Assembly: GCA_963719555.1 (NCBI GenBank)
Contig: CAVRCL010000005.1
Location: 201,606 to 265,605, forward strand
Direction: 5' to 3'
Length of the DNA: 64,000 bases
DNA from: Thermoanaerobaculia bacterium
GTDB lineage: Bacteria; Acidobacteriota; Thermoanaerobaculia; Multivoradales; JAGPDF01
Part shown: positions 3,012-55,331 of the stretch, one piece after another
Layout of the letters: the number at the start of each line of letters is the position of its first letter
Position numbering within the stretch: the first letter of the stretch is position 1
Position numbers and translations under genes: made by a program
The notes under the pieces: generated by a model
The model's database searches: none
What the model saw: only the letters and a program-made list of their open reading frames with translations
What the model was told of the DNA's origin: nothing

Positions 3012-5656
3012 GCGGGCCTGCTTCAGGGCCGCGAGGTTCGTGCACCCGCTGCGCCGTGGCGCCCGGACCCGGCGCTGTGAGCGCTGCGCTGACGGCCTCC
3101 AAGCCGAGCGCCTTGCGGGTCGCCGCCAGCTCGTCCGGATTGTCGGGCGGGGACTTTTGCAGACCGGCAAGCGCCGCTTCGAGGAGCGGCCGCGCCTCGG
3201 CCTCGCGATGCAGCGCCAGGAGGGCGCGGCCCTGCGCGGCCTGGGCCCGCGCCAGGGTTGCCGGCGCGGGCTCCTTGGCTGACGCGAGAAGCGCGAGGGC
3301 CGCGACCGCTGCGCTCTCGGCGCCCGCCGGCTTCCCGGCAACCAGGAGGTGGTGGGCGACATCGATGCGATACCCGGCGAGCGTGCGTGGATTCCCGCGC
3401 GCTCCTTCGAGGTCCGCGGCGAGCTGCCGAAAGCTCGCCGCGGCGGCGCGGCTTCGCCGCCACGATCGAGCGCCCGGGAGCGATTGCGCAGGGCCGCAAG
3501 CGCCATCGGATGCGTCGGCCCGTCGGTTTCGACCCAGATCGCATGGGCGTGGTCGTAGGCCGCAGCCGCCGCCATAAAGGCCGCTCCGTCGACCTGAGCC
3601 GCCGCCAGGGCCGACCAGCTGTTGGCGACCATGTAGTGGCGGTCGCCCAGCTTCGCGCGCCGCAGGGCGAGGATCTCCTCGTGCTCGCGCGCGCGCTCCG
3701 CCGGATCGTCGAGCATGGAGGCGAGGTTGCTGCGCAGGCCGAGGGTCAGCAAGTGGTTCTCGCCGCGCTCGGCGCGCAGGATCGCCAGCGCCTCGTGGAA
3801 GAGAACCTTAGCCTGCTCCGCCCCCTCCACGTCGTTGCGCGCGCGGCGGAACCAGGCAAGCGCGGTGAGACTGGCGGCGATCTCGAGACGGGGCGCTTCG
3901 GGCGTCGCGCGCAGGATCGCCAGCGCGCGCTCGATCCGCCGTTCGGCCGCTTCGCCCGTGTCGAGCTGGCCGGCTGTGCCGAGGGTGCTGGCGAGGAGCA
4001 GGGGCGGCGGCGCCGGGGAACGCTCCACCCGCGCCAGGGCGTTCTCGGCCTCGGCGATCGCTCCCGCCCGATCGCCGGTGAGGTGCAGCGCGCGCGCGTA
4101 GTCGAGCTGCACCGGGATGAGCCCCAGGTCGTCCGGCGGGAGACGCGCGAGCTCGGCGTCGCGCGCCTGCTGCAGCAGTGGCAGCGCCGCGACCCAGGCG
4201 CTGCGCTCGAGCTGGATTCGACCGAGAACGTGGCGCAGCCGCGCCTGGACGTCGGGCTGATCGGCAAGCCGGTCGGCCTTCGCGCTGCCCTGGGCGATGA
4301 GCGCGGAAACGCGCACCGTGTCGAGGTCGGCACCGGCAATCGGATCGAGGCCACCGAAGAGCTCGACCATGAGGTCGACGACTGCCTGCGAGCGCCCGGC
4401 GGCGAGCGCTGCGGCCTCGCGCTCGCGCGACGCCTCGCGTGAACGCGCCACGGAGATGGCGGTCGAGAGGGCGAGGCGCGACGACCGTCGCGACGGACGC
4501 CGCGACGGCGAGCCGATGGCGCCCGACGAAGCGCCGTGCGCGGTAACCGAACGCGTCCGGGCGCGCGCGGACCGGCTCGCCGCGGAGCCAGCGTTCGACG
4601 TCGTCGGCCAGCTCCCCCGCGGAAGAGAAACGGCGCTCGGGCTCGGGGGCGAGCGCGCGCGCGATGACGGCCGAGAGATCCCGGTCGAGCCCGGTATTGG
4701 GCGGCGGGGGATGGGGGGGCTGGGGGACATGGCAGGGGCGGCGGCCGCAGCGCCGGCGCGGAGCGGTCGCCGGTCGATTCGGCCGGCAGTCGCCCGGTCA
4801 TGAGCTCGTGGAGAAGGATGCCGAGCGCCCAGACGTCGGTCGCCGTGGTCACCGGCTCGCCGCGGCGCTGTTCCGGCGCGGCGCGCTGCGGCGTCATCGG
4901 CGCGAGCTCGAGCGCACGCGTCGGTTGGGTGGCGTCGTCGCGCGGCGAGAGGAGCTTGGCGATGCCAAAGTCGAGCAGGTGCACCCGGCCGTCGGCGCTC
5001 ACCAGCACATTCGACGGCTTGAGATCGCGATGGACGACGAGATTGGCGTGCGCGAACTGCACCGCCCGGCAAAGCTCGACGAAGAGCTCCGCCCGGCGGC
5101 GCGGCGCGGCCGCGGTCTCGGCGCAAAACTGGGTGATCGGCCGGCCGTCGACATAGCGCAGCGCCAGATAGGGCCGCCCGTCGTCGGCCGTGCCGGCGTC
5201 GAGGAGAGGCACGACCGCCGGGTGCTCGAGACGGGCGAGGAGATTGCGCTCGAGCCGGAAGCGGGCGATGAGATCGGCCGAGGCGATCCCCGGCCGCAGA
5301 AGCTTGACCGCCACTTGCTGGGTGAAGGCGCCGTCGGCGCGCTCGGCGAGATAGACCTCGCCCATGCCCCCGCGGGCGAGAAAACGCACGATCTGCCACG
5401 GTCCCAGGCGGGTGCCCGCGACGACGGAGGGTGAGCTGTCGGTCATTCCCAGGCGGCTCTCGAGCTCGAGGCCGGCGGCGGTCGGCGTCGCCTCGAGCAT
5501 CGCCGCGAGCTCGGCGGCGAGTGCCGGCGCGGTGGCGCGCAGCTTCGCGACCAGCTCGCGACGCTCGGCGGGCGTCGCGTCGCGCGCCTGTTCGTGGAGC
5601 TCGGCGAGCCGGTCCCAATCGGCGGGAGCGGGGGGGCGAGGCGAGTTGTTCGTCAT
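2983..5656 (-). CDS. Ser/Thr protein kinase with transmembrane segment and C-terminal TPR repeats; interrupted by at least 3 frameshifts
   Basis: Kinase frame 5656 to ~4780 (GMGEVYLA, HRDLKPSNVL, DFGIAK, DVWALG). The next frame carries the kinase end plus TM (ADDVERWLRGEPVRARPDAFGYRARRFVGRHRLAVAASVATVV). A third frame ~4490 to ~3440 carries TPR-like repeats. A fourth frame ends ...RALRWGD* with stop at 2983-2985. The start overlaps the sigma-factor stop (ATGA). Confidence 0.8.
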
Positions 5657-6282
5657 TCGTCTGTGGACTTTCGCGCCGTTGGCGCGGCAGGCTGGACATC
5701 CTCGCCCGGCGCGGCGAGCGCGCTGCGTACCTCCTTGCGCAGCCAGGCCATGGCGGCGTCGCCGTCGCGCTGCACGGTCTTGGTCGAGACATCCAGGAGC
5801 TCGGCCGCCTCCTCGAGCGTCAGGCCACCGAAGAAGCGCAGCTCGACGACCCGCGCGGCGCGCGGCTGCACCGCTTCGAGTCGGGCGAGCGCCTCGTCGA
5901 GCGCCAGGGTCTCTTCGGCCGCCTGCGGCGAGAGAAACCCCTCGGCCGCCTCGAGCGCGACGCGCTCGGCGCCGCCGCCGCGCTTCAGCCGCTGACGCGC
6001 CCGCGCGTGATCGACCAGCACCCGCCGCATCGTCCGCGACGCGGCGGCGAAGAACTCGCCGCGGTCCTGGGCGGCGATCCGGTGCTGGTCGACCAGCCGG
6101 AGGTAGGCCTCGTGGACCAGCGCCGCGGTATCGAGGGTATGGCCGACGCGCTCGCCGCGCAGCCGCCGGCGGGCGAGCCGCCGCAGGTCGTCGTACAGCA
6201 GGGGCACGAGGCGGTCGAGCGCCTCGGGCGAGCCGTCCCGCAGCCGGCCGAGCCAGAGTGTGATCTCACCGCTCGAGTCCAT
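5653..6282 (-). CDS. RNA polymerase sigma-70 family ECF sigma factor (type associated with Ser/Thr kinases)
   Basis: Intact 209 aa: EITLWLGRLRDGSPEALDRLVPLLYDDLRRLARRRL...TLDTAALVHEAYLRL and a sigma-4 HTH (LTLEEAAELLDVSTKTVQRD). 4-nt overlap with the downstream kinase gene. Confidence 0.9.
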   Translation of the reverse strand: MDSSGEITLWLGRLRDGSPEALDRLVPLLYDDLRRLARRRLRGERVGHTLDTAALVHEAYLRLVDQHRIAAQDRGEFFAAASRTMRRVLVDHARARQRLKRGGGAERVALEAAEGFLSPQAAEETLALDEALARLEAVQPRAARVVELRFFGGLTLEEAAELLDVSTKTVQRDGDAAMAWLRKEVRSALAAPGEDVQPAAPTARKSTDE

Positions 6283-6414
6283 GTGACTGTGGAAGTTGAC
6301 GACAGATACGGGCGGATCCGCAAGCCTGGTTCACTTGCAGCCCGTCCCCGCAACGGCGGAGAGGCGTGTCCAGTTCTGTCGCCATTTGGCGCGAGAACGA
6401 CCGAAGGAGACTCA

Positions 6415-7858
6415 ATGAAAAACCGAGCATTGGGATCGCACGTGACTTTTCGCCTCGCGGCTTTCGCTCTGGCGGCGGACCGCAACGGCCGCGGCGACGA
6501 CGATGACGGTCGACTACCGACCTCGGATACCGACGCGGCGGACGGCTTCTGCTCGCTCCGCGAAGCGATCCTCGCAGCCAACTCAGACGCTGTGCGCCAG
6601 GAGTGCCCGGCGGGGGCCGGCGCCGACCGGATCGTGTTCGACCTCCGCTTGCCCGCGACCGTGACGCTCTCTGCGGATCTGCCGGCGATCACCGCGACGG
6701 TCGCGATCCGCGGGCCGGGTGCCGGTGGCTGGCGATCGACGGCCAGACGCTCTACCGGCCTGTTCGTCTTCGCCAGCGCCGACGGCGGTGACTGGTACCT
6801 GCTGGAGGACCTATCGGTCCTGCACGGCTACGCCAATACCGGACTCGGACCGGATGGGGGTGGCGCCTACGTCGGCCCGGGCGACACCGCGATCTTCTCG
6901 CGTGTCGTCGTTGCCGAGAACGTCGCCGCGAACGGCGGTGGCGGCATCGCGGTCGACGGCCTCACCGGCCTGCCCGCACAGGCGGAGATCCACGACTCCA
7001 TCCTCAGTGGAAACCTCTCCCTGGGGGCGGCCGGTGGCGGTGGTCTGCTGGTCGTAGACGACTCAGCGGTTGAAGTCATCGGGTCATCGATTATCGACAA
7101 TCGCGCCGAGGCTTCATTTGGCGCCGGCGCCGGCATGGTGATTCAGCGCAGCACTGTTGCGGTCCAGCGCTCGACCATCTCCGGCAATCGGCTCTTGGCA
7201 GCGGTGGTGGCATCTTCGTCAGTTCGAACACCGAGCACGCGGCTCTGCTCTCGCTGGTCGATTCGACGCTCTATAACAATCTTGCCGACGCCGATTTCGA
7301 TCTGGTCGGCGACGGCGGCGGGATCTTCACCACCGGTCCGGATACTCAGCTCGAGTTCGAAAACTCGATCGTCGCCGGCAACGCCGACGATGGCGCCGTC
7401 GTGAATCCTGATCTGTCCGTCAGCCCCTTCATCGTCGTGACCAGCTCCGGCTTCAATTTCATCGGCGTCAACGAGGGTGCCGCCGCCGTCTTCGCGGCCG
7501 GAAGCCCGAACGCGAACGGCGATTTCGTCGGCACGGTGCGGCGCCGATCGATCCATTGCTCGAGGCTCTGGCGCCCAACCAGGGCGCGACGCTCAGCCAC
7601 CGGCCGGTGCTCGACGCCGCGAGCCTGGTGATCGATCACGGCGCCTGCCCGGGACGCAGCGCCGACCAGCGCGGTCGCGGCGTACCGAGTACGCACCTGC
7701 GAGCCTTCGACCACCCCACGGTGCCGACGCAAGCCGCGAGCGACGGTTGCGACATCGGTGCGGTCGAGCGCGGTGCCTCCGCCGACTCGGCGGCCGAGCT
7801 CTTTCTCGACGGCTTCGAGCTCGGCCACACCCTGCGCTGGAGCGCGGAGGCGCCGTGA
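6415..7858 (+). CDS. secreted CSLREA-domain / parallel beta-helix repeat protein ending in a conserved C-terminal tail (LFLDGFELGHTLRWSAEAP); about 2 frameshifts
   Basis: GGAGA RBS then ATG at 6415. MKNRALGSHVTFRLAAFALAA signal-like N-terminus, CSLREAILAAN motif and Gly-rich beta-helix repeats. The reading frame passes through ORFs ending 7404, 7631 and 7858. Confidence 0.7.
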
Positions 7859-9461
7859 GGAGGTTGTGGCGGGCGATCCTCGCTCTCTTACGCTCGCCGC
7901 GCCCGGCAGGCGACGGGCGGAACGACCCGCGCTGGGAGCGGCGGCTGGACGAAGCGGTCGTTGCCGCACGCTGCCCGTTCTGGATACCGGCCCCCACTCC
8001 TTCTCGCCGGCTCCGGCGGCGGCGCGGCGAGCGCGACGGTCCTCACGGTCAACACGGTCGATCCGGGTCTTGCGGCGGCCGACGACGGCTGGTGCACGCT
8101 CTACGAGGCGGTCGCTTCGGCGAACACCGACACCGGCTCGGGCGCGCTGGCCGGCGAATGCGCCAGCGGCCTGGGCGACGACACGATCGCCTTCGCCGTC
8201 GCCACGCCGGCCACCTACGTCCTGAACTTCGGCCCGCTCGTGGTCACCGCGGGCCTCGTGATCGCCGGACCGGGCGCCGACCTCCTGACCCTCAACGCCC
8301 AGGGTCTCAACCGCATCTTCGTCTATTCGCCGACCGATATCCTCGCCGCCCCGACCTTCGAGGTCTCCGGACTCACCTTCACTGGCGGGTGGGCGCTCGG
8401 CGACTACAATGGCTTCGGCCCCGGGAGTGGCGGCGCCCTGCTCGCCCAGAACGGCCAGGTGTATCTTCACGACCTGGTCTTGCGCGGCAACCTCGCGCTG
8501 GATCAGGGCGCCGGGGTCTATGCCACCGCGACACTCAACGTCGAGCGCGCCACGTTCGCCGGCAACGTCAACACCGGGCCGGTGATCTTCGGCGGCGGCG
8601 GCGCCGCGATCAGCCACAACTCCGGCGGCGATCTCACCATTCGCGACAGCTCCTTCGTCGACAACAGCGCGCTCGCCAGCGATCCCGCGGGGGCACTGTT
8701 CGACCCCCACGGCGGCGCCGTGAACGCGCTCACCTTCGGAATCGTCACGATCGAGCGCTCCACCTTCGTCGGCAATCGGGCGAGCGGCGCGGGAGGGGCG
8801 ATCGGGATCGGCCTGCACCGCACCTATCCGACCGCGCTCACGACAGTGCTGCGCTTTCTCACCGTGGTCGACAACGAGGCCGACAGCGACGGCGACGGGA
8901 TCGGTGGCAATCCCGGGGTCTACACCGGCGGCAGCGGCGGCGGCATCTTCGTCGCCGATTCGCTCGGTACGACTACGATCGAGGGTTCGATCGTCGCCGG
9001 AAACCTCGACTCGGGACCCGACAAGGCGCCCGATCTCGACGGATTCGACTTCCTCTCGCTCGGCCACAACCTCGTCGGTATCCGGCGCGGCAACGCCGCA
9101 TCGACCTTCCCGGCCGGCCAGCCGAACGGAAACGACGACTGGGTCGGCACGATCGGCGCCCGCTCGCCCACGGGCTCCTGGCACTCGCCGAGAACGGCGG
9201 GCCGACCCCTCCCGTCTGCCCGATCTCGCCGCCGGCCCGAGCCTCGCCATCGATCATGGGAGCTGTCCGGGGGAGATCGCCGATCAGCGCGGCTATGCCA
9301 ATCCGGCTAGCGCGGGGCGCGCGGTCGATGAGCCGAGCGTCGTCGACGCCGACGACGGGTGCGACATCGGCGCCGTCGAGTTGGGAGCGGTCTCTCCGCA
9401 GCTCTTCAGCGACGGCTTCGAGAGCCAGGACACTTCGCTGTGGAGCGCGACGGTGCCGTAG
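7856..9461 (+). CDS. secreted CSLREA-like (GWCTLYEAVASAN) beta-helix repeat protein with the same C-terminal tail (LFSDGFESQDTSLWSATVP); N-terminus unresolved, frameshifted
   Basis: Main frame 7961..9310 (LNFGPLVVTAGLVIAGPGADLLTLNAQG..., repeated GG.G.. turns). The C-terminal frame 8904..9461 ends CDIGAVELGAVSPQLFSDGFESQDTSLWSATVP*. Paralog of the 6415..7858 gene. Confidence 0.65.
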
Positions 9462-9472
9462 CCGGGCGCGCT

Positions 9473-10985
9473 TCAGGGCACCACGGTCTTCGACCAGAAG
9501 AAGGTCGTGCCGGACTCGAAGCCGTCGGTGAAGATGAGCGCGCTCGTCAGCCGGCGGAAGGAGAAGTCCCAGTCGAGCCCGCTCCACTGCCCGGAGCCGA
9601 CGAGCACCGGCTTTCCTCCCGAGAGCGTCAGGCAGTGGAAGTCGTCGTTGCCGTCGCCGCTGCCCACCGGCGGCATGTCGAAGGTCCGCTTGCCGGTACC
9701 CAGGCCGCCGAAAGAGCTGTCGAGCCCGGATTCCGCGAGCACCCGCGCGACGCCAACGTCGATGACGTTGCCGGTGTCCCCGGTGATCGCCGCCGCCGCG
9801 ACCACGATCTTGCCATCGGACTGCACGACCATGCGGTTCATTCCGCCTCCGCCGTCGCCCCCTGAGCCGCCGATATCGAAGGCGACGTACTCGGTGAAGG
9901 CGTTGTTCAGGGTGCCGTCGGGACCGAGGCGGGTGACCACGATGTTCTCTTCGTTCAGCAGGCCGTACTCGCCCGCGACGACGATGCTCCGGTCGGGCTG
10001 GAACGCGATCGAGCGCAGATAGGCCGACGCGAAATCGGTCGATCACCAACTCTCCCGTGCCTGCCCCCGCCGAAGGTCGGGTCCAGATTCAGGGTGCTCC
10101 CCAGAATAGCGGGCGATCGCCATCGAGGCGAAGAAGTCCGGCGGACCGGTCTTTCCCCATCCGCCGAGCAGGACGTTGCCGTCCGGTTGGAACGCCATGG
10201 CGGTCGGAATCGTGGTCGCGAAGACGTAGCCGGGGAAGGTGAGGGCGCGGACGTCGTCGGGTTGCCTACCGAGTCGAGGAGCTGGAAGATCCACCAGCCG
10301 GTCCCGTCGGCGAGCAGCCGGCCCAGCAGCCAGATCCGGCCGCCGGGGTCGACGCCCACCGCGGTCACCCCGGTGTCCATCCCGAACTCGAGGTAGAAGC
10401 CGTTGATGGCAAAGACCGGATCGATCCAGCCGTCCGGGAGGATCCGGGTCACGAAGCCGATGCTCGCCCCGGTCGAAATCAGGGCCATGGAGCCGGCGAC
10501 CAGGATGCGACCCTGCGGGTCGATCGCCATGGCATGGGCCCGACCTTGCGTCGCCTGAATGCCGATGTCCGAAAGATCGATGACCAGCCGCCCGTCGCTG
10601 TCGAAGGTCGGATCGAGGAGGCCGTCCGTCTTGACTCTGGCGATCGCGATCTGGCCCTGCTCGCTGTCGTTCGTCGTCGCCGACCCGGCCAGGAGGATTT
10701 GCCGTCCGCTTGGGCGGCGCAGGTGCGGGAGAGATCCGTCGCGGCGAAGTTCAGGTCGAAGGGGATCGAACCGTAGCCGCCGAGGTCATCGAGACCGTCA
10801 ACGGCGGGCAACATCTGAGCCTGCAACCCGAGCAGGGTGGCAAGAGCCAGAGCGAGGTGCGAGCGGCGAAAGCGCGCGGCGGAAGGCTGACGGGATCGAA
10901 TCGAACATGGCGGACCTCCTTGCACCATGAACGTGCGAGGCGCCGCGAAAGGGATCAGTCGAGGCCCGGGCCGGTGAAGACGCAT
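9473..10985 (-). CDS. secreted delta-60-repeat protein with the same C-terminal tail (IFTDGFESGTTFFWSKTVVP); frameshifted
   Basis: N-terminus RRSHLALALATLLGLQA looks like a signal peptide. Repeats of the P/QDGKIVVAG, LDPTFGGGG type run through ORFs 10479..10985, 9955..10530 and 9473..9940. It is convergent with the previous gene, 11 bp apart. Confidence 0.65.
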
Positions 10986-11077
10986 CGCGGATCCGGCCGG
11001 AGTGAGCCGAATGCCCGGCCGGAAAGCACGTTATGGATGAGAGGCCAGCTCTCGGCCGCGGCGGAGGAGGAAACGAG

Positions 11078-12360
11078 ATGCATCAACTTCGACAAGTCGG
11101 CAGTTGGTGGGGACATGCGTCATCGGCGTTCGGCTTGTTCGGCCTGCTACTCCTACCGCAAGGCCGGCTTCGCCGGCACCGGCCGGTTGGTCTCCCGTGG
11201 GTGAACCGGGCGCCGCGGATCGACGGCCAGATCGCGGCCGGAGAATGGAACGCGGCGAAGCTCGTCGACCTGGGCGCCGGGGTCACACTCCTGATCGAGA
11301 ACGACGCCCGCACGCTCTACCTCGCCTTCCTCGACTCCGGCGATCCGAACTCGGATCCGGCGACTCAGTTCGTGCTGCTCTTCGACGACGAGGGGGGCAC
11401 TGCGCGCCGTCCTCGACGACAACCTCTCGAACGGCGCCCTCTGCCAGGCGACGCCGGATCTCGGCGAGGGCATCCTCGAATTCACCTGCGGACCAGAAGG
11501 TCACTTTACCAGCGAAGTACGCTCAGGCGGCTATGCCTGCCGCGACCGCTCAATGACCGGCGCGACAGCTTTCGTTCCGCCGCGCGGCCGGAGGGGGTGA
11601 CCTACGAGGCGGCGATGCCGCTCGATGGCCCGACGCCGCTGCAGGCGGGGCCGGGAGAGCGCTTTGGCGTCGCGTTTCGGGTCTATCGCGACGGGGGCGC
11701 TCGGTCGCCTGCCTACCGGATTGCGCGGCCTGAGCGGCCCGGCCGGACTACCGCAACCTCGTCCTCGCCTCGGGCGGCTGCAACACCGGCCCGCAGGACT
11801 TCGGCTCCGGCGACCCGCTCGTCGGATTGCCGCTCGACTGGACGAGCGAGAACACCGCCGGCGGCGGCCCGGGTTGGGTCCAGGCGCCACCCGCGCAGTT
11901 CGGCGATCCGGTCTTCTGTCAGGCCAACGATACCGGCGGTAGCGGCGGCGCGGCCTGCGTCTCCAACTACTTCTGCACGGCGCCGCGCACCGACTCGCTG
12001 CTGCGTATGCCGCTCGCCCTCGAGGGCGACCACCGCCGCCACCGTCTGCGGGCGCGCGCCGTCCTGCAGGTCGGGGGGCCGGCCGAGTACCTCGACTTCG
12101 GCATTCGCCGCCTCGACACGAGCGGCAACTCGCTGCTCTTCTGGCTCGACGAGAACCGCAACGAGACGGTCGAGCTGTGGATTCCGGTCGCCGGCAGCCC
12201 GCCGGTCGAATTCTGGTTCACCCACTCGACCTTCTCGGACGGCGGCGTCGAAGGCGGCTACGCCCAGATCGACGACGCCGAGCTCCCCTGCGGCCCGCGG
12301 ATCTTCGCCGACGGCTTCGAGTCGGGCCTGACAACCCACTGGAGCGCGGACGTGCCTTGA
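11078..12360 (+). CDS. secreted protein (DOMON/CBM9-like N-terminal region) with the same C-terminal tail (IFADGFESGLTTHWSADVP); frameshifted
   Basis: MHQLRQVGSWWGHASSAFGLFGLLLLP then PRIDGQIAAGEWNAAKLVDLGAGVTLLIENDARTLYLAF. Frames 11033.., 11531.. and 11827..12360 join to end ...PCGPRIFADGFESGLTTHWSADVP*. Confidence 0.55.
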
Positions 12361-12389
12361 GCGTTCAGCCGGGCGCGACTCGTTCCGCT

Positions 12390-12790
12390 CTACGGCTCGA
12401 CCTCGAATCCGAGCTGCGCCGCGACCTCGCGCTGCTTGGCGTCGAGGGAGAGGAAGGTGATCTCGGCGTCGGGACTGAGCAGAGCGCGCAGGCCGAGGTG
12501 CCAAGCGTCCGCGCCCCGCAGCTGCCCGGAGGCGAAAACGCGTCTCGATCTCCGGGCCCAGCGCGCGATCCGGGAGGATCCAGCGCAGGTGGTGAAAGAG
12601 CTCTTCGCGCTCGACCTCGAGACCCTCGCGCTGAACACAGCCGATGGAGCTCGGCTTCGAGGAGGTTGGAAGACCAGATCGAGTCGAAGCGGTCGAGCTC
12701 TGAGAGCTCGCGAACCCGGCTCGGCGAGCAGGATTGCCACGAGGCACGAGGTGTCGACGTAGGCGATGCTCAATCGCGATCGTCGAGGAA
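12390..12790 (-). CDS. vapC: VapC-type PIN-domain toxin; internally frameshifted
   Basis: IAYVDTSCLVAILLAEPGSRALRARP at the N-terminus and SPDAEITFLSLDAKQREVAAQLGFEVEP at the C-terminus. The middle is garbled; part of it is visible in another minus frame (EGLEVEREELFHHL). Confidence 0.5.
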
Positions 12791-13049
12791 TCGCTGCAGG
12801 GCGCCAGGTCGATGAGCGATCGGCTTCCAGGTGCCTCTCGCTGGCGCGACTGCAGCCGGGCGCAAGACTGGCCTTCCGCTTGAGGCGGTCGAGCCGCTCC
12901 TCGAACGTTTCCACCGATTTCTCGATCGGCCGGATCTCGGCCACCGGCTCGCCGTGAAAGGTGATCACCACCCGCCCCCCCTGCCGCACCTTGCGCAGCA
13001 GTTCGCTGAACTTCGTCTTCGCTTCATATGTTGAATAGACGGATTCCAT
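12791..13049 (-). CDS. Phd/YefM-family antitoxin
   Basis: MESVYSTYEAKTKFSELLRKVRQGGRVVITFHGEPVAEIRPIEK is a typical Phd/YefM N-terminal fold. The supplied ORF reads through into vapC without a stop, probably because an indel removed it. Confidence 0.7.
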
Positions 13050-18326: not shown

Positions 18327-18942
18327 TCAGTGCCAGCGCTCGTGCGCGACGTCGTAGACGAGGCAGTCGATCCTGCCGGTGCGCCCGGTGACGCGCGCCG
18401 CCGCGAGGTGGCGCATGCCGTCCGTGACGTAGACCGTGCCCGGCGTGGCCGTTCCGAGCGCACTGAAAGACGCGATGTCGGAGCGGTTGAAGCGGATCGG
18501 ATCGTCGAGACCGGTAGAGCCGGCGGCGCGGGATCTCCAGGGTCGCGCGGCGCCCGCCCGGGTGGAAAGCCGAAGCGGATCTGGCGGCCGAGGTGGGCGA
18601 GCCGCGTGCGCGGGAGTGACCTGCGGATCGTCGCCGGAGAGGATGTCGGCGGAGAGCACGCCGTCGCCATCACCGTCGCGATAGAGCGCCCAGGTCACCG
18701 TCCCGTCGGCGTCGACCCGGAACTTCAGCCCGACGTTGGCGTCGTGACGAATGGCGTAGGCGCGCGCAACGTGAAAGGTGGAGGCGACTTCGGCTGCGGC
18801 GAGCTCCACCCGGAGCCCGGCGGCGAGCGAGAGCAGCGGGGGGATGCCCCAGGGCGAGCACCAGGGAAGAGATCGCCATCGCGATCAGGAGCTCGATCAG
18901 TTGGTAGCCCCGCTCGGCCGTCCGCATCGAAGTCGCCTCCAC
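18327..18942 (-). CDS. prepilin-type N-terminal cleavage/methylation domain protein (GspH-like pseudopilin); frameshifted
   Basis: ERGYQLIELLIAMAISSLVLALG pilin-like N-terminus (frame 18670..18942) joins ELAAAEVASTFHVARAYAIRHDANVGLKFRVDADGTVTWALYRD (frame 18327..18809). Confidence 0.6.
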
Positions 18943-18954
18943 CCGTCCCCGGGA

Positions 18955-19336
18955 TCAGCTCTTCGCCGCCTGCTTGCCGGCTGTGGCGTCCGGCTGCTGG
19001 GTGCCCTTCGGAGCGCGCGGCAGCTTGACCTTCTCGGTGAGCGTCGTCGGTCCGGCGAGCGCCACGTAGGGCTTCAGCTGCTCGTAGGTCGACTCGCCGA
19101 TGCCGCGCACCAGCATCAGGTCGTCGAGCGTCTTGAACGGTCCGTTCTTCTCGCGCTGCTCGACGATGCGCGCCGCGACCGACGGGCCGATGCGCGGCAG
19201 AAGCTGGAACTCGGCGACGGTCGCCGTGTTGACGTTGACCGTCTTGCCCTCGGCGGCGAGCGCCGGCACGGCGGCGAGCAGGAGACAGAGGACGGCGGCG
19301 GCGGCGATCGATTCGCTGGTGAAGTCGCATGTACGG
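18955..19336 (-). CDS. comEA: ComEA-type helix-hairpin-helix DNA-binding protein
   Basis: KTVNVNTATVAEFQLLPRIGPSVAARIVEQREKNGPFKTLDDLMLVRGIGESTYEQLK. A signal-like AAAAVLCLLLAAVPALA segment sits upstream in an adjacent frame; ATG at ~19333 after a 1-nt frameshift. Confidence 0.75.
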
Positions 19337-19427
19337 TTTCCTTTCCTGAGACGTCGATGAGGCGTTCATGGAGTGCAGCCTGGAGACTCCTGCGGGTGCT
19401 GCGTTGACGACGTCGTGTTGCTGGATC

Positions 19428-19483
19428 GCCGTGCTTCTGCGATTGCATTGCTGTCTGCGACTGCGGTGCTATCTGCGACTGCG
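19428..19483. repeat. three imperfect tandem copies of a 17-18-bp unit (TGCTTCTGCGATTGCAT / TGCTGTCTGCGACTGCGG / TGCTATCTGCGACTGCGT)
   Basis: Read directly in the ~460-bp, lower-GC intergenic region between comEA and lepB. Confidence 0.5.
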
Positions 19484-19804
19484 TTCATGGATGGCAGAGC
19501 TGCTCGCGGGTGGGCTGTCTTTCTGGCGCCTCCTCTCTCCGGTTGGTGTTGTGTTGCGCCAGCCTCCGGTTACAAGCCCGCTGCCAGTTCGTGTGAATTT
19601 CGGTAAAACACCAGAAATACAGTGGTTACAGCGATGCGGGCGACGGGCTGTCTGGCGTGCCGTCGGCAAGCGGACAGGCGGTTTCCGGGCGCCAGGACGG
19701 TTCGAGTGCGGCCGGCGCAGCGCGGCGCCAGGCGCGACCGGCGCGGTCAAGGGAACTGGACGGCGGCGCAATCCCTTGCGGCGATCGGATAGGCTTCAGG
19801 GCCG

Positions 19805-20509
19805 ATGTCGACTGCCGACCGCTCCACGTTCCGCGAGTATCTCGAGGCCCTGCTCATCGCGGCGGTCTTCCTGCTGTTCACCAACACCTTCGTGGTCAAG
19901 ACCTTCTTCATCCCCAGCGGTTCGATGGAAGACACGCTGCTGGTCGGCGACCATCTCTTCGTCAACCGCTTCATCTTCGGCCCGACGATGGGCAAGCTCG
20001 AGCGGGCGGTCTTGCCGCTGCGTGCGCCGCGGCGCGGCGACATCGTCGTCTTCCGCTCGCCGGAACGGCCGAACATCGATCTCGTGAAGCGCCTGATCGG
20101 CCTGCCGGGCGACACCATCCAGGTCGTCAACAAGCAGCTCTTCGTCAACGGCAAGAAGGTCGAGGACGACGCCTACGTCGAGCACAAGGATCCGCGGACT
20201 TTCCTCAATCGCCCCTACATGTCGGAGCAGCAGCGCCTGCGCGACAACTTCGGACCGGTCACCGTGCCGGCCGAGAGCTACTTCTGCATGGGCGACAACC
20301 GCGACATGTCCTATGACTCCCGCTTCTGGGGAACCGTGCCCGAGCACTACATCAAGGGGCGCGCCTTCCTCATCTACTGGTCGTTCGGGGGCGGAACTTC
20401 GGACGGCACCTGGCGCGGCGCCGGCGCGAAACTGCGCGAGCTCGCCAACACCGCCCTCGGGTTCCTGACCAAGACCCGATGGACGCGCTCGCTCCACCTG
20501 CCGAGCTGA
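19805..20509 (+). CDS. lepB: signal peptidase I
   Basis: Intact 234 aa: N-terminal TM, SGSMEDTLLVGD (catalytic Ser), VKRLIGLPGD, YFCMGDNRDMSYDSRFWG, FLIYWS. Confidence 0.9.
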   Translation: MSTADRSTFREYLEALLIAAVFLLFTNTFVVKTFFIPSGSMEDTLLVGDHLFVNRFIFGPTMGKLERAVLPLRAPRRGDIVVFRSPERPNIDLVKRLIGLPGDTIQVVNKQLFVNGKKVEDDAYVEHKDPRTFLNRPYMSEQQRLRDNFGPVTVPAESYFCMGDNRDMSYDSRFWGTVPEHYIKGRAFLIYWSFGGGTSDGTWRGAGAKLRELANTALGFLTKTRWTRSLHLPS

Positions 20510-21025
20510 ACCGCGGCGCCGCCGCCCGACCCGGACCGCCGGCCGCCCACCCCGCGCGCGGCGCGAGCACGATCGCGCGCAGCGCGCTCGTGGCGCTGCT
20601 TCTCGCGCTCTTCGTGCGCGCCTTCCTGCTCGAAGTGGTGTCGATTCCGAGCGCCTCGATGATGCCGACCCTCGAGCCCGGCGACCAGGTGCTGGTGAAT
20701 CGCTTCCTCTACTCCGGACCGCGCTTCGGCCTCCTGCCGCGCCGGCCGGTGCGCCGGGGCGATGTGGTTCTCTTCCGCCCGCCGTTCGACCGCCGGCAGG
20801 AGTTCGTGAAGCGCTGCGTCGGATCGGCCGGAAGACTGGGAAGGCGGCGGCGTGCTCGCCCCGGGGGCGCTCTGGATGGAGGGCGACGCGCGAGAGAATT
20901 CGCTCGACTCCCGGCGTTTCGGGGCGGTGCCCGAGAGCGCCCTGGAGGGCCGGGTGCTGGCGGTGCTCTGGTCGCGTTCGCACGCTCCGGGCGCCGGCCG
21001 TCGCATTCTCCGGCAGGTACGCTAG
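20479..21025 (+). CDS. lepB: signal peptidase I, second paralog; C-terminal frameshift
   Basis: SASMMPTLEPGDQVLVNRF, VKRCVG in frame 20479. The C-terminal box GDARENSLDSRRFGAVPESALEGRVLAVLWS is in another frame ending at the TAG 21023-21025. Confidence 0.8.
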
Positions 21026-30459: not shown

Positions 30460-32248
30460 GCAGCTCGCCTCCTTTGCGCCCGCCGCCCTTGACGACCGCG
30501 ACCTCTTTGCGGCTCATGGTCCTTGACCGAGTTGTAGAGCTTCTGCTGCGCGATCGTCAGGACGTTGTTGGTCAGCCAGTAGAGCACCAGGCCGCTGGCG
30601 AAACCGAGCGAGAAGATCGTGAAGACCACCGGCAGGAACTGCATCAGGCGCTTCTGCACCGGATCGGGCGGCGCCGGGGTCATCCGTTGCTGGACGATCT
30701 GCGACAGGCCCATGACGATCGGCAGGACGTAGTAGGGGTCCGAGGCGGTGAGGTCGTGGATCCAGACCGATCCAGGGCGAGCGCCAGAGCTCGACGGCCG
30801 ACGAGAGCAGGCTGTAGAAGGCGAAGAACACCGGCAACTGAATCAGCATCGGGAAGCAGCCGCCGGCCGGGTTGACCCCCTCCGAGCGGTAGAGCCCCAT
30901 GATCTCTTCGTTCATCTGCTTCTGGGCGTCGGAGTTGAAGCGCCCGTTCTTGTCGCGCAGCTTCCCTTTCCAGCGCTCGCGCACCGCCTGCATCTTCGGA
31001 TTGAGCTTCTGCATCTTGCGCATCGACTTGAACGCCGAGATCGAAAGCGGCAGCAGCACGATCTTGAGCGCCACGGTCAGCAGGACGATCGCCCAGCCGT
31101 AGTTCGCCACCACGTTGGCGTAGATCCACTGCAGGCTGTAGAGCAGCGGCCGGGCGAGGAAGCCGAACATGCCGAGCTGCACCGTCTTGTCGAGGCCGTA
31201 GGGCATGGCGGTGAGGTGGTCGAGCTGCTTCGAGCCCCAGTAGGAGGTGGCCTCGATGCGGCCCTCGCGGGCCTCGATCTCGAGCACGAAGTCGCGCGGC
31301 AGGTCCTTGTCGGTGGCGGCGATCTCCGCCGGCGGCGCCGGCACCGGCCGCGGTGTCGAACGTGCGCTCCTCGCCGGCCGGAACCAGCATCACCGGCCGG
31401 AAGCGCGCCTTCGCCACCGGCTGGTGCGGCACCACCGCGGTCAGGAAGTAGGTGTCTTCGAGGCCGACCCAGTTGAGGGTCTCGCCGGGAGCTCGAGAAC
31501 GGCTCCTTGGCCTTGGCGGGGTCGAGCGTCTCCACCTTGCCGGCGACACTCCACACCGCCCGGCGCAGCTCGAACCGGCTGGCGAGCTCGTCTGCCGTGC
31601 GCGCCCGCAGGCCGGGGCCGAGGAGCAGATTGAAGCTCTGCTCGGCCGGGCGCGGCGACGACGATCTCCATGCGGCCGTCGGGGCCGAGGAGGAAGCTCT
31701 TCTCCACCTCGCCCTGGCTGCCGCGATAGACGAAGTCCAGCCGCTCGCCGTCCTTCGTCGTCTCGCGCGTGGCGACGAAGAGGGCGGCGTTCGCGGCCAG
31801 CGGCTCGCCGCCCGGCCCGAGCAGCGAGAACGGCAGCGGACTCTCCTTGCGTGGCGCGACCAGTTCGAGCTCGCCGCCGCGGGGAACCCGCCGCCGACCC
31901 GACGTTCATGCCTTTGACCCGCAGCGAGACCAGACGGGCGCCGCGGTTGGTGAACTCGGCCCGCAGGGCGTCGTTCTCGAGCACTTCGCACGCTCCTCGG
32001 CGGCCGCGACCGGCGGCAGCTCGGGGGCCGCCGCCGCGACGGCGCCGGCGCTGCCGGCGCGGCTGTCGCCAGGGGCACCGCGCCGGCGGCGGACCCGCTC
32101 GCGCCGGCGCGCTGGGGTCGCTGCCGGCGCGGCGGCGACGGCCGGCCGCGGCGGCGCGGGTCGCCTCCGGCGGCGGGAAGACCATCTGCCAGAGGAACAG
32201 GACCGCCATCGACAGGACAGCGGCAATCAACAGGCGCTTGTTATCCAA
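30456..32248 (-). CDS. yidC: membrane protein insertase YidC; multiple frameshifts
   Basis: [21 protein letters not shown] (TTG start ~32248). Core region [22 protein letters not shown]...[20 protein letters not shown]...[17 protein letters not shown]-terminus [27 protein letters not shown]. Confidence 0.8.
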
Positions 32249-32519: not shown

Positions 32520-32930
32520 GGGCGCGGACGGAAGGGGGACGCCGGCGGCAGGAGGCTGGCCAGCAGGCGTTCGAGCTCGCGGCGAAAGTCGGCGAAGTCG
32601 GCGCCCGCAGCGCCGGGCTTGAAGTGGGCGATGAGGTCGCTCGCCGGCAGGCGGTCGCGCTCCGGCCAGCGGCGGTAGATCTCCCGCGCCCAGCGCTTCA
32701 AACGATGGCGTTCTACGGCGCCGCCGACCTTGCGGCTCGCGGTCTGGCCGAACGCGGGGTGCACCCTGATCGTTGTCCAGGCTGTGGAGGACGAGGAAAG
32801 AGCCGCCCTTGCGCCGGCCTTCGGCGTAACAGCGGCGGTAATCTTCGGTCTTGCGAAGGGTTTGGCTGCGCCTGAATCGCTCACTGGTGATCGGCGGGGC
32901 CGGCGGGGCCACCGGGGCCTGCGCGGTCAT
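32520..32930 (-). CDS. rnpA: ribonuclease P protein component; one frameshift
   Basis: ATG at 32930. SERFRRSQTLRKTEDYRRCYAEGRRKGGSFLVLHSLDNDQGAPRV, then in another frame RKVGGAVERHRLKRWAREIYRRWPERDRLPASDLIAHFKPGAAGADFADFRRELERLLASL. Confidence 0.7.
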
Positions 32931-38941: not shown

Positions 38942-40399
38942 TTACGACGGCAGCCCCCAGGCAACGATGGTTCCCGACTCGAACGAGTCGGAGAAGATGT
39001 GGTTGTTGCCCAGCCGCAACGTGCCGAAATCCCAGTTGCCGGCAGCAAATTCCCCGGCTCCTGCGACGACGGGCTTGCCGCTCGTCGTGGTGACACAGGT
39101 CGGCCAGTCGTTGCCGGCGCCACTCCCTGCCGGCGGCAGATCCCAGACCGCGCGCCCGTCGCTCGCCGGACCGAAGGTCGGATCGAGCTCGCCGCTCAGC
39201 GTGAAGCGCGCGATGCCGATGTCGGCGACATTCCCCGCCAGACCGGTCGTCGCCTGGGCGGCGACGAGCACCTTGCCGTCGGTGGTGAGCGCCATGCGGT
39301 TGCCGCCGCTCGCGCCGTCGCCGCTCGCGCCGCCCTGGTCGAAACTGACGAAGGTCGTGTTGCCGTTGCCAAAGCCCCAATCGGTGCTCAGGGTGCCGTC
39401 GGCCCGAAGCTGGGTCACGAACAGATAGTTGTAACCGATGGGATCGCCGATCTCGCCGGCGAAGAGGATCCGGCCGTCGGGACGCACCGCGACGGAGCGG
39501 GCGACGGTGTTCACCCCGTAGTCGAGAAGGTATCTCCCGCCGTTGAAACCAAAGAGGGGGTCGAGCGCGACGGTCGACAGGAGCCGCGCGATGGCGGCGG
39601 AGTTGTAGATCCCGGCGGTCGGTCGCCCGACGCCGACGAGCACCACCTTGCCATCCGCTTGGAGCGCGATCGCCGTCGGTCCGCCGGTCGGCACGCCCGG
39701 AATCGTGAACGATGTCGCGCCCAGGGACGCGCCGTCGGCGGCCCGCTTCTCGATCGCCCAGACGCCGTCGCTGCCGTCCGTCTCCTGGCCCGCGAGCCAG
39801 ATCGTGCCGGCGGCGGGATCGATGGCGACCGCGGTGATCGCGCGCTGCGTGAGGACAATGTAAAGACCGAAGGTGGTGTCGTAGACGCCGCCGGCGGTGA
39901 CGCGCAGGAAGAAACCGATCCTCGAGCCGAGCTCCAGGATCGTGCCCGCCAGGATGTAGCCCGCGCCGGAGGGCTCGCGCGCCATCGCCAGGACGAGAGG
40001 ATCGGAGTAAAACGCGGGCGTGCCCGGGCTGAAAGAGAGCCGGCCGCCCGACCCGAAAAGGGGGTCGAGCAGTCCGGTCGCCGCCAGTCTCGCGACGGCG
40101 ATCTTGTGGCCCGAACCGTCCTCTTCGGTGGCTCTGCCGGCGAGCACGACGCCGCCGTCCGACTCCGCGGCGCAGGCCGACGCGAAATCGTAACCCGCGC
40201 CGCCGAGATTGAAGGCGACCGAGGACGTCCCGCCGGTGGGATCAGGGAGGCCGTCCACGGCCGAGACGGGTGCGGCAATCGCGAGCAGGAAGCCCGCGGC
40301 GGCCAAAGCCCGACGCGGCAGGCTGGTGAAACGCGACCGCGCCGGTGCGGGTGAAACTGCGGGTGCAACGTGGGTGAGATTCTTCCGACGCTCGAGCAT
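38942..40399 (-). CDS. secreted delta-60-repeat protein with the conserved C-terminal tail (IFSDSFESGTIVAWGLPS); intact
   Basis: Signal peptide RRALAAAGFLLAIAAPVSAVDG. Repeated ..DG.(I/V)(L/V)(L/V)AG and LDP(L/T)FG units. Ends NWDFGTLRLGNNHIFSDSFESGTIVAWGLPS*. Confidence 0.75.
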   Translation of the reverse strand: MLERRKNLTHVAPAVSPAPARSRFTSLPRRALAAAGFLLAIAAPVSAVDGLPDPTGGTSSVAFNLGGAGYDFASACAAESDGGVVLAGRATEEDGSGHKIAVARLAATGLLDPLFGSGGRLSFSPGTPAFYSDPLVLAMAREPSGAGYILAGTILELGSRIGFFLRVTAGGVYDTTFGLYIVLTQRAITAVAIDPAAGTIWLAGQETDGSDGVWAIEKRAADGASLGATSFTIPGVPTGGPTAIALQADGKVVLVGVGRPTAGIYNSAAIARLLSTVALDPLFGFNGGRYLLDYGVNTVARSVAVRPDGRILFAGEIGDPIGYNYLFVTQLRADGTLSTDWGFGNGNTTFVSFDQGGASGDGASGGNRMALTTDGKVLVAAQATTGLAGNVADIGIARFTLSGELDPTFGPASDGRAVWDLPPAGSGAGNDWPTCVTTTSGKPVVAGAGEFAAGNWDFGTLRLGNNHIFSDSFESGTIVAWGLPS

Positions 40400-43873: not shown

Positions 43874-45633
43874 ATGCGAAGGCTCTTCTTCCTGCTGCTT
43901 CTCGCCACCCTCCTGGGCGTGGTCCTCGCCGGCGCCGGCTATCTCTTCCTGCGCCACGAGGCTCCCGCCTGGGGCGGCGCCAAGATTCTCACCCTCACCC
44001 TGGACGCCCCGCTCCGGGAGCACGATGTCGAGCCGACCTTGCCGTTCGTCGGCGACGAGGAGCGCATCTCGCTCTCGCTGCTCTACCGCGGCTTCCTCGC
44101 TGCGCGCACCGACCCGTCCGTGGTCGCCGTGGCGCTCTACATTCACGACGCCTCTTTCGGGCTCGCTAAGGCGCAGGAGTTGCGGCGGCAGATCGCCGAA
44201 CTGGATCGCCTAGGGAAGCCCGTGCACTGCTACCTCGAAACCGCCGGCGAGGGCGGCAACGGCACGCTCGAGTACTACGTGGCCTCGGCCTGCTCGTCGC
44301 TCGCCCTGGCGCCGGCCGGCGAGATCAACCTCCTCGGCCTCTTCGCCGACAGCCCGTTCCTGCGCGGCGGTCTCGACCAAGCTCAAGATCGATCCGAGCT
44401 TTCTGACGGCCGGAGAATTCAAGAGCGCCGCCGAGATCTTCACCGAGGCGCGGCACTCGCCGGCCGCGAAGAGCGGCGCTCGAGGCCCTGCTGGACGGTT
44501 TCTACAACCAGATCGTGGACGGCATCGCCGCCGGCCGCGAGACCGAGCCGGCGGCCGTGCGCGCCTGGGTGGACGCCGCGCCGCTCTCCGCCGCGCGCGC
44601 GCTCGAGCTGGGCCTGGTCGACGAGCTCGCCTATCCGGACGAGTTTCGCGACGGTCTCGACGAGTCCGCCGACGGCGCGCCGCGCGATGCTCCAGCGCGT
44701 CGCCTTCCTCGACTATGCCCGCGACAGCTCCTCGCGTCTGCCGGGCGGCAGGCGGGTCGCGGTCCTCTTCGCCCAGGGCGCCATCGTCCGCGGCGACAGC
44801 GGTTCGGATCCGTTCGCCAGCGAGCGCCTGCTGGGCTCCGCCGACATGGCCACGGAGCTGCGCGACCTGGCCGAAGACGACGCGGTCGTGGCGGTCGTGC
44901 TGCGCATCGACAGCCCGGGCGGCTCGGCGCTCGCCTCCGACCTGATTCTGCGCGAGGTCGAGCTGCTGGCCGCCGAGAAACCGCTCGTCGTCTCGATGTC
45001 GGACGTCGCCGCTTCCGGCGGCTATTACATCGCGGCGCGCGCCTCCCGCATCGTCGCCGAGCCGGCGACGATCACCGGCTCGATCGGCGTGGTGACCGGC
45101 AAGCTCGCCACCGGCAGGTTCCAGGAAGAGCTCCTCGGCATCACCCACGATCCCCTGCAGCGCGGCGCGAACGCCGATCTCTATTCCGAGCCTGAAGCCG
45201 TTCGACGAACGCCAGACGGCGCTTGCTGCGCCGTCGCGTCGACGAAATCTACGGCCGCTTCCTCGAGCATGTCGCCGCCGGCCGCAAGCTCGACCGCAAA
45301 GCGGTGGAGGCGGTCGCGGGGGGCCGCGTCTGGACGGGCGCCGACGCCCTCGCCGTCGGGCTCGTCGATGAGCTCGGCGGACTGGATCGTGCCATCGCGC
45401 TCGCCCGCGAGGCGGCCGAAATTCCACCGTCCGAGAGCCTTCCCTTGATCTACCTGCCGCGACCGCCGAGCTTCTGGGAGCTCTTCTCCTCGAACCGCCA
45501 GCCCGATTTCGAGGCGCTCCTCTTCGAGCTCGTCGGGGCGCGGTTCGCAGAGCGTCTCGGCGCCCGGCTCCCGCGGCCGCAGCTCGAGCTCGAGCTCGAC
45601 TCTGCGTGGCAGGCGCTCGCCGACGGCCTATGA
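43874..45633 (+). CDS. sppA: signal peptide peptidase SppA (67K type, two S49 domains); several frameshifts
   Basis: MRRLFFLLLLATLLGVVLAGAGYLF N-terminal TM. HCYLETAGEGGNGTLEYYVASACSSLALAPAGEINLLGL; second domain VVLRIDSPGGSALASDLILRE...VVSMSDVAASGGYYIAARASRIVAEPATITGSIGVV; C-terminus GGRVWTGADALAVGLVDELGGLDRAIALAREAA. Confidence 0.8.
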
Positions 45634-47110: not shown

Positions 47111-47112
47111 GT

Positions 47113-47345
47113 CCGCCCGCAGAAAACGCTGTGGAAATCCAGCGGAGACTTTGTTCAAAAGCGTCCGGGTCCTTCTTTTTCCGCCGCGATTCGTCTCGCT
47201 CTCCACAGGCGGTCTTCCACAGGCCAGAGCTGCAGGATCCTTTGCCCGCAGGCTTCCGAGAGGCTTTCCGCAGATCCGCCGGCATCTATGTACGACTACG
47301 GCTATGTTATGTTTTCATCTCTTCTAGTGCCCGGAGAATCGAGCC
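47113..47345. promoter_or_regulatory. candidate oriC / dnaN promoter region: three DnaA-box-like 9-mers plus an AT-richer unwinding stretch
   Basis: TGTGGAAAT (47130-47138), TCTCCACAG (47200-47208) and TCTTCCACA (47213-47221), each two or fewer mismatches from TTATCCACA/TGTGGATAA. AT-richer ATCTATGTACGACTACGGCTATGTTATGTTTTCATCTCTTCTAG at 47284-47327. Confidence 0.45.
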
Positions 47346-48464: not shown

Positions 48465-48537
48465 AGCCGGCGCCGGCAGCCGCAGCGCCTCCGGCACCGC
48501 TCCGACTTCGCCAACTCGCCTGCCGACACCGCCAACC

Positions 48538-52817: not shown

Positions 52818-55331
<2,514 letters not shown>

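Follow-up and report, generated by a model that had tools for sequence, protein, structure and literature searches.

A 64-kb stretch of DNA (70% G+C) from contig CAVRCL010000005.1 of a Thermoanaerobaculia bacterium, referred to here as the window, encodes five proteins that end in the same short tail. We suggest, tentatively and with not quite even confidence, that this tail serves as a C-terminal tag for sorting or secretion, specific to its lineage and lacking a transmembrane (TM) helix, on proteins that Thermoanaerobaculia export through the Sec pathway. In each case the open reading frame (ORF) ends in hF-x-D-[GS]-F-E-x-[GQ]-x4-W-x(3-5)-stop. The five copies are:

Tail 1, 7799..7855, plus strand: LFLDGFELGHTLRWSAEAP, followed by a stop codon at 7856-7858.
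Tail 2, 9402..9458, plus strand: LFSDGFESQDTSLWSATVP, extending to 9461 with the stop codon.
Tail 3, 9476..9535, minus strand: IFTDGFESGTTFFWSKTVVP, 9473-9535 with the stop codon.
Tail 4, 12301..12357, plus strand: IFADGFESGLTTHWSADVP, extending to 12360 with the stop codon.
Tail 5, 38945..38998, minus strand: IFSDSFESGTIVAWGLPS, 38942-38998 with the stop codon; divergent, with S in place of G and the ending PS.

A six-frame scan of the window places the D[GS]FE sites at 7808, 9411 and 12310 on the plus strand and at 9526 and 38989 on the minus strand. At all five sites, the stop codon follows 15-17 residues after D[GS]FE and a tryptophan lies ten residues after the aspartate. Over all six frames there is just one more D[GSA]FE, which is internal and unrelated. 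Searched as a DNA pattern, F-x-D-x-F-E-x6-W is matched five times, at exactly the five tails, compared with an expectation of 0.00 estimated from 100 dinucleotide-preserving shuffles of the window. Both scans recover the tails exactly as an earlier note on this DNA had written them, and a looser scan of the window did not find further degenerate copies. The note had described the tail as free of a TM helix, a basic cluster and cysteine, and this description holds: the chain ends 15-17 residues past the aspartate, with no hydrophobic run and no cluster of lysine or arginine. The two convergent genes do place their tails 11 bp apart, as measured between the stop codons at 9459-9461 and 9473-9475. 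The DNA segments encoding the five tails share just 68% identity, with differences at synonymous sites, indicating that the tail is conserved as protein and not as a DNA repeat. A DNA repeat or gene conversion as the origin of the likeness is rejected on the same grounds.

The tails are attached to the following genes:

Gene 1, 6415..7858, plus strand: secreted protein with a CSLREA N-terminal motif, a beta-helix, choice-of-anchor Q and the tail; frameshifts near 7186 and 7520.
Gene 2, 7961..9461, plus strand: paralogue of gene 1, CSLREA-type (CTLYEA), with beta-helix / choice-of-anchor Q and the tail; frameshift at about 9165-9210.
Gene 3, 9473..10985, minus strand: delta-60-repeat (DUF5122) beta-propeller with the tail; paralogue of gene 5, with two or more frameshifts.
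Gene 4, 11078..12360, plus strand: secreted protein, fold unassigned, with a MAM-like C-terminal region and the tail; frameshifts near 11400, 11500 and 11690.
Gene 5, 38942..40399, minus strand: intact, 485 residues; delta-60-repeat beta-propeller with a signal peptide and the tail.

Profile scores bear out two CSLREA/beta-helix bodies (genes 1 and 2) and two delta-60 bodies (genes 3 and 5), as claimed earlier from the letters. Gene 1 scores 28.1 bits for CSLREA_Nterm (TIGR04214) and 28.3 bits for choice_anch_Q (NF041518), both above the cutoff of 25. The paralogous gene 2 fragment reaches 21.8 bits for the choice-of-anchor Q/CSLREA models, below the 25-bit cutoff; the start of this gene is ambiguous, with two candidates in different frames, TTG at 7961 and GTG at 7855. 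For both genes, Beta_helix is below its curated cutoff in the window fragments and at the cutoff in the intact orthologues found on a 949-kb contig, L123. Gene 5 scores 102.1 bits for TIGR02608 (cutoff 76.5) and 71 bits for PF17164 (cutoff 27). The same two models match the pieces of gene 3 below cutoff because the gene is fragmented by frameshifts. Gene 3 shares 42% identity with the orthologue of gene 5 (tblastn, 10246-9494 and 10698-10282, in two frames), and its closest full-length relative by tail similarity is P0003, a protein of 469 residues ending in ...IFADSFESGTTFFWSHAVP. The description of gene 4 as DOMON-like is unconfirmed: its intact L123 orthologue has no Pfam match at E<=0.1, hence no support for a DOMON or CBM9-like domain, and the C-terminal half of gene 4 is similar to the MAM-like domain found ahead of the tail in other proteins.

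Only gene 5 is a continuous ORF. The phase of G+C content at third codon positions switches frame within each of genes 1-4, indicating that these are not single ORFs but contain one to three frameshifts each. Between 29500 and 55400, comparison with a 90-99% identical relative, including a mapping of the genes of the 90%-related contig L001, shows that housekeeping genes are split across frames as well: dnaN (47346-48461, four frame segments), yidC (30510-32154), rnpA (32546-32891), sppA (43874-45630), gyrA (53337-55331) and jag. On L123, the orthologue of gene 1 (8577-10004) is intact, has 475 residues and ends in LFVDGFELGHTLRWDAEVQ, aligning by tblastn with three frames of the window; that of gene 2 (P0242, 10001-11506) is intact, has 501 residues and ends in IFNDGFESQDTSQWSVTVP; and that of gene 4 (4052-5314) is intact, has 420 residues and ends in IFSDGFESGLTTHWSAEAP, each tail being followed directly by the stop codon. 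Because essential genes are equally broken and the orthologues are intact, the frameshifts in genes 1-4 are attributed to assembly indels and not to pseudogenisation, a reading we reject on the same two observations. The window derives from an indel-rich assembly, probably a long-read one, and any ORF-based reading of it requires frameshift correction. All three L123 orthologues carry an N-terminal signal peptide as well as the tail. The view that the four clustered genes and the fifth encode signal-peptide proteins is therefore supported by the intact orthologues of genes 1, 2 and 4, with the qualification that genes 1-4 are frameshifted in the window itself. Among other close relatives, P0001 on contig L001 is the orthologue of gene 5 (90% identical), and a 449-residue fragment of gene 2 is 100% identical to P0241.

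How far does the tail extend beyond these proteins? Run against 5.8 billion proteins, a tail profile gave 1,038 matches at E<=10 among 1,596 word-sharing candidates. The best 120 of the 1,038 are ORF fragments of 24-77 residues with the consensus IFADGFESGDTSAWSATVP, and 112 of these 120 end exactly 16 residues past the aspartate; the short-target preference of HMMER probably contributes to the short fragments among them. These database 'hypothetical proteins' (P0121-P0240) consist of little beyond the tail. They look like C-terminal pieces of larger genes, severed by frameshifts or contig ends, and one of them, P0210, maps to a contig of the metagenome-assembled genome (MAG) L099, where other tail genes are full-length ORFs. 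When 1.84 billion cluster representatives were searched exhaustively with the profile, 7,745 protein clusters matched at E<=0.001, so the tail is not confined to the five paralogues.

Scanning one genome per GTDB species with the DNA pattern yielded at least 120 loci; the counts by taxon that follow rest on the matches listed. In MAGs labelled Acidobacteriota, mostly Thermoanaerobaculia and including Multivoradales and Sulfomarinibacteraceae, 86 of 94 motif matches lie within 20 residues of the stop, as do all six in MAGs labelled 'Deltaproteobacteria'. None of the 20 matches in Chloroflexota, Actinomycetota, Armatimonadota, Verrucomicrobiae and archaeal MAGs does so; there the motif opens a jelly-roll domain. 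The tail is thus C-terminal as a rule in the lineage of the window and not in other phyla. Across the listed genome occurrences, the distance from the aspartate to the stop has a mode of 16 residues (66 of 123) and falls between 11 and 19 residues in 98 of 123. Positions left unconstrained by the search are nevertheless conserved: T in 68%, A in 68%, S in 80% and V in 51% of occurrences, together with I/V/L ahead of the first phenylalanine and D/N, and a terminal proline is present in 87-92% of the tails. The consensus is [ILV]-F-x-D-G-F-E-[ST]-G-[DN]-T-S-A-W-S-x-[TA]-V-P-COOH, about 19 residues long within a conserved segment of approximately 19-22. There are several copies per MAG, and the 64-kb window alone contains five.

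These data also bear on whether the tails are really internal, with stops and frames produced by sequencing errors. The window is indel-rich, and many of the tail 'proteins' in databases are the 24-77-residue fragments described above. Against this, the intact L123 orthologues stop right after the tail, gene 5 is intact, and 86 of the 94 Acidobacteriota occurrences listed share the same stop position across many independent short- and long-read assemblies. We consider such an artefact hardly credible, and the tail does not become internal in better assemblies.

Variants of the tail exist. Among 120 homologues of gene 5, six have the long form and about 18 end at, or a few residues after, ...hFxDGF[ED]-COOH. 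This short form, without the W-containing half, is found in P0018, P0025, P0028, P0029, P0031, P0038, P0061 and P0065, and further in P0068, P0075, P0078, P0083 and P0086. Its holders include delta-60 proteins of Dokdonella fugitiva, Dokdonella sp. MW10 and a Rhodanobacteraceae MAG, indicating that a related C-terminal motif is present in culturable Gammaproteobacteria. Tandem double tails, 21-24 residues apart and C-terminal, occur in P0279, P0285, P0292, P0303, P0311, P0319, P0320 and P0377. In P0322, the full consensus IFADGFESGDTSAWSATVP stands at the mature N-terminus, ahead of a galactose-binding-like domain.

To describe the proteins that bear the tail, 72 full-length carriers were extracted from the loci. 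By a crude rule, 53 of the 72 have a signal peptide, and most of the others are positive by eye. The carriers match 77 Pfam families, no family being present in more than seven of them. The families include Peptidase_S8, M14, M28, C25, PAD_porph, BNR/Sortilin, FG-GAP and Beta_helix, as well as InhA-like MAM, PKD, cadherin-like and GH114, a cargo set that resembles those of dedicated secretion and sorting systems in its peptidases, PAD_porph, adhesins and beta-helix proteins. The 160 residues ahead of the tail are similarly diverse: among 85 such regions, 44 are singletons and the largest group, MAM-like, has eight members. Roughly a dozen residues at most separate the tail from the domain ahead of it; in genes 1 and 2, where the choice-of-anchor Q model ends at CDIGAVE, the gap is no more than 12 residues. 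In an alignment of CSLREA homologues, twelve proteins have the tail in this anchor slot, whereas P0261 has a TM-type anchor and P0250 and P0256 have short tails. In delta-60 homologues, the slot is occupied by PF18962, the C-terminal domain (CTD) of the type IX secretion system (T9SS), of Bacteroidota type, in P0009, P0058 and P0087, and by RTX repeats (PF00353) in others.

AlphaFold2 models of two carriers place the tail apart from the body. In the model of gene 5 (mean predicted local distance difference test score, pLDDT, 84.7), the propeller is confident and the pLDDT is below 50 over residues 474-485; in that of P0242 (mean pLDDT 79.7), the beta-helix is confident and the score is below 50 over residues 478-501. 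Most or all of the tail is thus predicted to lie outside the passenger fold, disordered, on two unrelated bodies.

In other phyla the motif has a structural setting. There it opens a domain of 180-290 residues that is either internal or located just after the signal peptide. The tail profile strongly retrieves proteins with tandem jelly-roll repeats, in which the starts of the motif are spaced 190-295 residues apart. In Pfam, these jelly-roll domains align weakly but consistently with Polysacc_lyase (PF14099), CBM_4_9 and Laminin_G_3, starting from profile positions 1-4, and P0280 reaches the PF14099 cutoff. The tail and the first strand of such domains (CBM_4_9 PF02018, PF14099 or LamG-type) share hF-x-D-G-F-E-[ST]-G-x4-W. 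As judged from sequence, the tail would correspond to the opening beta-strand of a jelly roll of concanavalin-like type, separated from its domain and furnished with an added [TA]-V-P-COOH, and it appears to have evolved from a domain of the CBM_4_9/PF14099 type. The difference is in what comes next: in the jelly rolls the strand leads into a complete domain of 180-290 residues, whereas nothing follows the tail. No complete CBM_4_9/PF14099 domain (about 130-210 residues) is present in the tail proteins, where the chain ends 16 residues past the aspartate, and full jelly-roll domains with the motif were seen in other phyla only. This identity, the short form in Dokdonella/Rhodanobacteraceae and the frameshifts in the clustered genes had escaped the earlier note.

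The relation to a structural strand raises the question whether the tail serves recognition at all. It could be the leftover of a lost downstream jelly roll, or a strand that caps and stabilises the passenger, with no recognition system involved. The identity of the motif with a jelly-roll strand fits this idea, as does the MAM-like jelly roll directly ahead of the tail in 8 of 85 carriers. A neutral remnant would be expected to decay, however, and the length, sequence and terminal proline of the tail are kept across unrelated passengers in many genomes. Moreover, AlphaFold2 leaves the tail unpacked on both bodies tested, and the domains that precede it are mostly not jelly rolls. We therefore regard a remnant or cap as improbable.

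A second possibility is that the tail is a docking tag with no role in translocation: an orphan first strand or hairpin that inserts into a partner jelly roll from which that strand is missing. Such a tag would bring many secreted enzymes and adhesins together on one shared surface structure, comparable to dockerin-cohesin pairs or donor-strand exchange. The strong retrieval of the N-terminal strands of tandem jelly rolls by the tail profile, and the alignment of those domains from the first positions of PF14099 and CBM_4_9, agree with this proposal; so do the inability of the tail to fold alone, its free state in the models, and the existence of tandem double tails. Strand insertion would not need a fixed distance to the stop or a terminal V-P-COOH, though, and the short form ending in ...DGFE lacks the second half of the hairpin. 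No acceptor without its first strand was found, and none was searched for. On balance, docking alone seems rather unlikely. Strand complementation could also be the way in which an export receptor recognises the tail.

Based on these observations, we favour a sorting or secretion tag, for which the case is circumstantial. By sequence, the tail shares five traits with known tags: a strictly C-terminal position, independence from the passenger, attachment to cargo that would be Sec-exported, restriction to a lineage and location in an anchor slot. In a possible mechanism, the N-terminal signal peptide, recognised by inspection, would take the protein across the inner membrane, and the flexible tail would protrude from the folded passenger, as in the two AlphaFold2 models. 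A receptor in the periplasm or outer membrane might then bind the tail, probably as a beta-hairpin with a free C-terminus, after which the cargo would cross the outer membrane or stay on the cell surface, with the tail either removed or kept. The fixed distance to the stop and the conserved terminal proline suggest that the signal includes the chain terminus itself. A more specific version, which we hold to be possible but doubtful, is an undiscovered pathway of outer-membrane secretion or surface attachment in Thermoanaerobaculia, with a short-form cousin in Dokdonella/Rhodanobacteraceae; it would recognise a 19-residue TM-less beta-hairpin with a free V-P-COOH, possibly by strand complementation into a receptor whose jelly roll is missing its first strand, unlike sortase systems or the T9SS.

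Several points weigh against a sorting or secretion tag. No receptor, peptidase or secretion apparatus was identified in the window or in the at least 120 loci. When all ORFs of these loci were clustered against each other, the only families to recur were a Ser/Thr protein kinase (STK) with TPR (14 loci) and an extracytoplasmic function (ECF) sigma factor (6 loci). The tail has neither a TM helix nor a basic cluster and is far shorter than the CTD of the T9SS, so there is no mechanistic precedent. In jelly-roll domains elsewhere, the motif appears to be an ordinary structural strand. Finally, the N-terminal copy in P0322 and the tandem double tails would not be required if the tail were a C-terminal address. 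The suggestion of a sorting signal, made earlier from the window alone, thus stands as to its modular tail, signal-peptide cargo, lineage restriction, anchor slot and predicted disorder, and lacks a processing enzyme, receptor or secretion system.

Both recurrent families adjoin the cluster in the window:

ECF sigma factor (PF07638 type), 5653..6282, minus strand: divergent from gene 1; its L123 orthologue, at 7816-8535, matches PF07638.
Ser/Thr protein kinase with a TM helix and extracytoplasmic TPR, 3100..5656, minus strand: downstream of the ECF sigma gene and frameshifted; its L123 orthologue lies at 5311-7659.

In the L123 orthologue of the kinase, a TM helix can be recognised by eye at about residues 315-337, and the TPR, being located past this helix, is extracytoplasmic. 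On L123, the kinase-sigma pair is flanked on both sides by tail genes, and the ECF sigma factor may regulate the tail cluster. Could the tail then be a regulatory ligand, sensed by the TPR of the neighbouring kinase and feeding into the adjacent ECF sigma factor, in the manner of DegS-PDZ/sigma-E or PTS1/PEX5? The position of the pair beside the tail genes in the window and between them on L123, the extracytoplasmic TPR, and the recurrence of the two families are in keeping with it. But the distances to the tail genes are loose (-3 bp to 4.5 kb, with one directly abutting pair only), and the density of STK genes in the loci, about one per 50-60 kb, equals the background of the window and shows no enrichment. 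Gene 5 and most carriers, moreover, have no such neighbour. A regulatory ligand is very improbable in our assessment.

Gene order differs between the two contigs. The orthologue of gene 4 lies beyond the kinase-sigma pair on L123, gene 3 is missing from the L123 locus, and in a comparison of window 9473-13049 with L123 4052-12026 the antitoxin region at 12390-13049 has no counterpart among the L123 genes. The tail genes seem to form a mobile or rearranging part of the locus. Gene 5 stands apart, between truA and an AAA_28 gene, among housekeeping genes and close to dnaA and dnaN. Other features of the window are:

12390-13049, minus strand: Phd/YefM-type antitoxin, residues 4-45 of a 219-codon ORF, the rest of which has no assignment.
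18330-21022: GspH-like pseudopilin, ComEA-like helix-hairpin-helix protein and two tandem signal peptidase I genes (S26), 6-9 kb downstream of the cluster and conserved with L123; no evident link to the tail.
45753-49602 and 53337-55331: dnaA, dnaN, recF-like and gyrA, a replication-origin-type neighbourhood.
29.6-32.9 kb: rnpA, yidD, yidC and jag, likewise of replication-origin type.

The rest of the window consists of housekeeping genes, and no co-located machinery was found in it.

Thermoanaerobaculia are a widespread class of soil and sediment bacteria, known mainly from MAGs. The tail appears to mark much of their exported repertoire, including peptidases, glycosidases and adhesins. It is invisible to current annotation. 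Pfam, NCBIfam, the PDB and the literature searched hold no model or paper that describes it. A profile for the tail would label thousands of 'hypothetical' proteins as exported cargo and would identify the 24-77-residue database entries as fragments of larger genes. It would also enable phylogenetic profiling for the machinery behind this 19-residue candidate export or display tag; for LPXTG, PEP-CTERM and the T9SS CTD, the signal led in each case to the discovery of a dedicated enzyme or secretion machine. Its kinship with the opening strand of jelly rolls further suggests a route by which structural elements can give rise to sorting signals.

We compared the tail with known signals. The expectation that no named sorting or secretion model would match it was borne out: searches of Pfam-A and NCBIfam 20.0 with the five window proteins, ten consensus tails and the 72 carriers gave no match on the tail even at E<=1-10. 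A profile search of the PDB with the tail returned chance WD40 matches only, and no solved relative of the tandem jelly-roll protein P0266 was found there. Full-text literature searches on the motif strings and on C-terminal sequences or secretion in Thermoanaerobaculia found nothing relevant, and those on 'choice-of-anchor' and C-terminal sorting found known signals only. Sortase-type families, defined by a tripartite architecture according to PMC11980579, are alike in that LPXTG, PEP-CTERM, GlyGly-CTERM, MYXO-CTERM and IPTL-CTERM are also short motifs at the C-terminus of varied secreted proteins. The tail occupies the same 'choice-of-anchor' slot after NF041518 in which the homologue P0261 has its TM-type anchor. 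It differs in having no TM helix, basic cluster or cysteine before the chain ends, 16 residues past the aspartate. PF07589, TIGR02595 and their relatives had no match on the same window proteins, consensus tails and carriers, while the PEP-CTERM model, as a positive control, matched a Fimbriimonas protein.

Signals of the type I secretion system (RTX) do not fit, given that the tail proteins have signal peptides and the window proteins have no HemolysinCabind match. Nor does the beta-signal of outer membrane proteins (OMPs), as the terminal residue is mostly proline and not aromatic, and the two modelled bodies are a beta-helix and a beta-propeller and not barrels. Systems that read a C-terminal peptide, namely the OMP YxF motif with the DegS PDZ domain and sigma-E, or peroxisomal targeting signal 1 (PTS1) with the TPR of PEX5, likewise depend on a conserved free C-terminal peptide, and the ECF sigma factor and TPR-containing sensor kinase beside the cluster recall them; unlike in those systems, the association of STK and ECF sigma with the tail genes is loose. 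The T9SS is not known from Acidobacteriota. The CTD of that system (PF18962/TIGR04183, Bacteroidota) is a folded beta-sandwich of about 70-100 residues, whereas the tail, modelled as disordered, has 19 residues in a conserved segment whose length confirms that it is too short for such a domain; PF18962 and TIGR04183 found no match and no sequence similarity on the tail carriers. In other respects the T9SS CTD is a close parallel. Like the tail, it is a TM-less C-terminal signal on Sec-exported proteins, restricted to a lineage and present in many copies per genome. It is carried by similar passengers (C25, PAD_porph, S8 and M14 peptidases, adhesins and beta-propellers), and delta-60 homologues carry PF18962 in the very slot that the tail occupies here.

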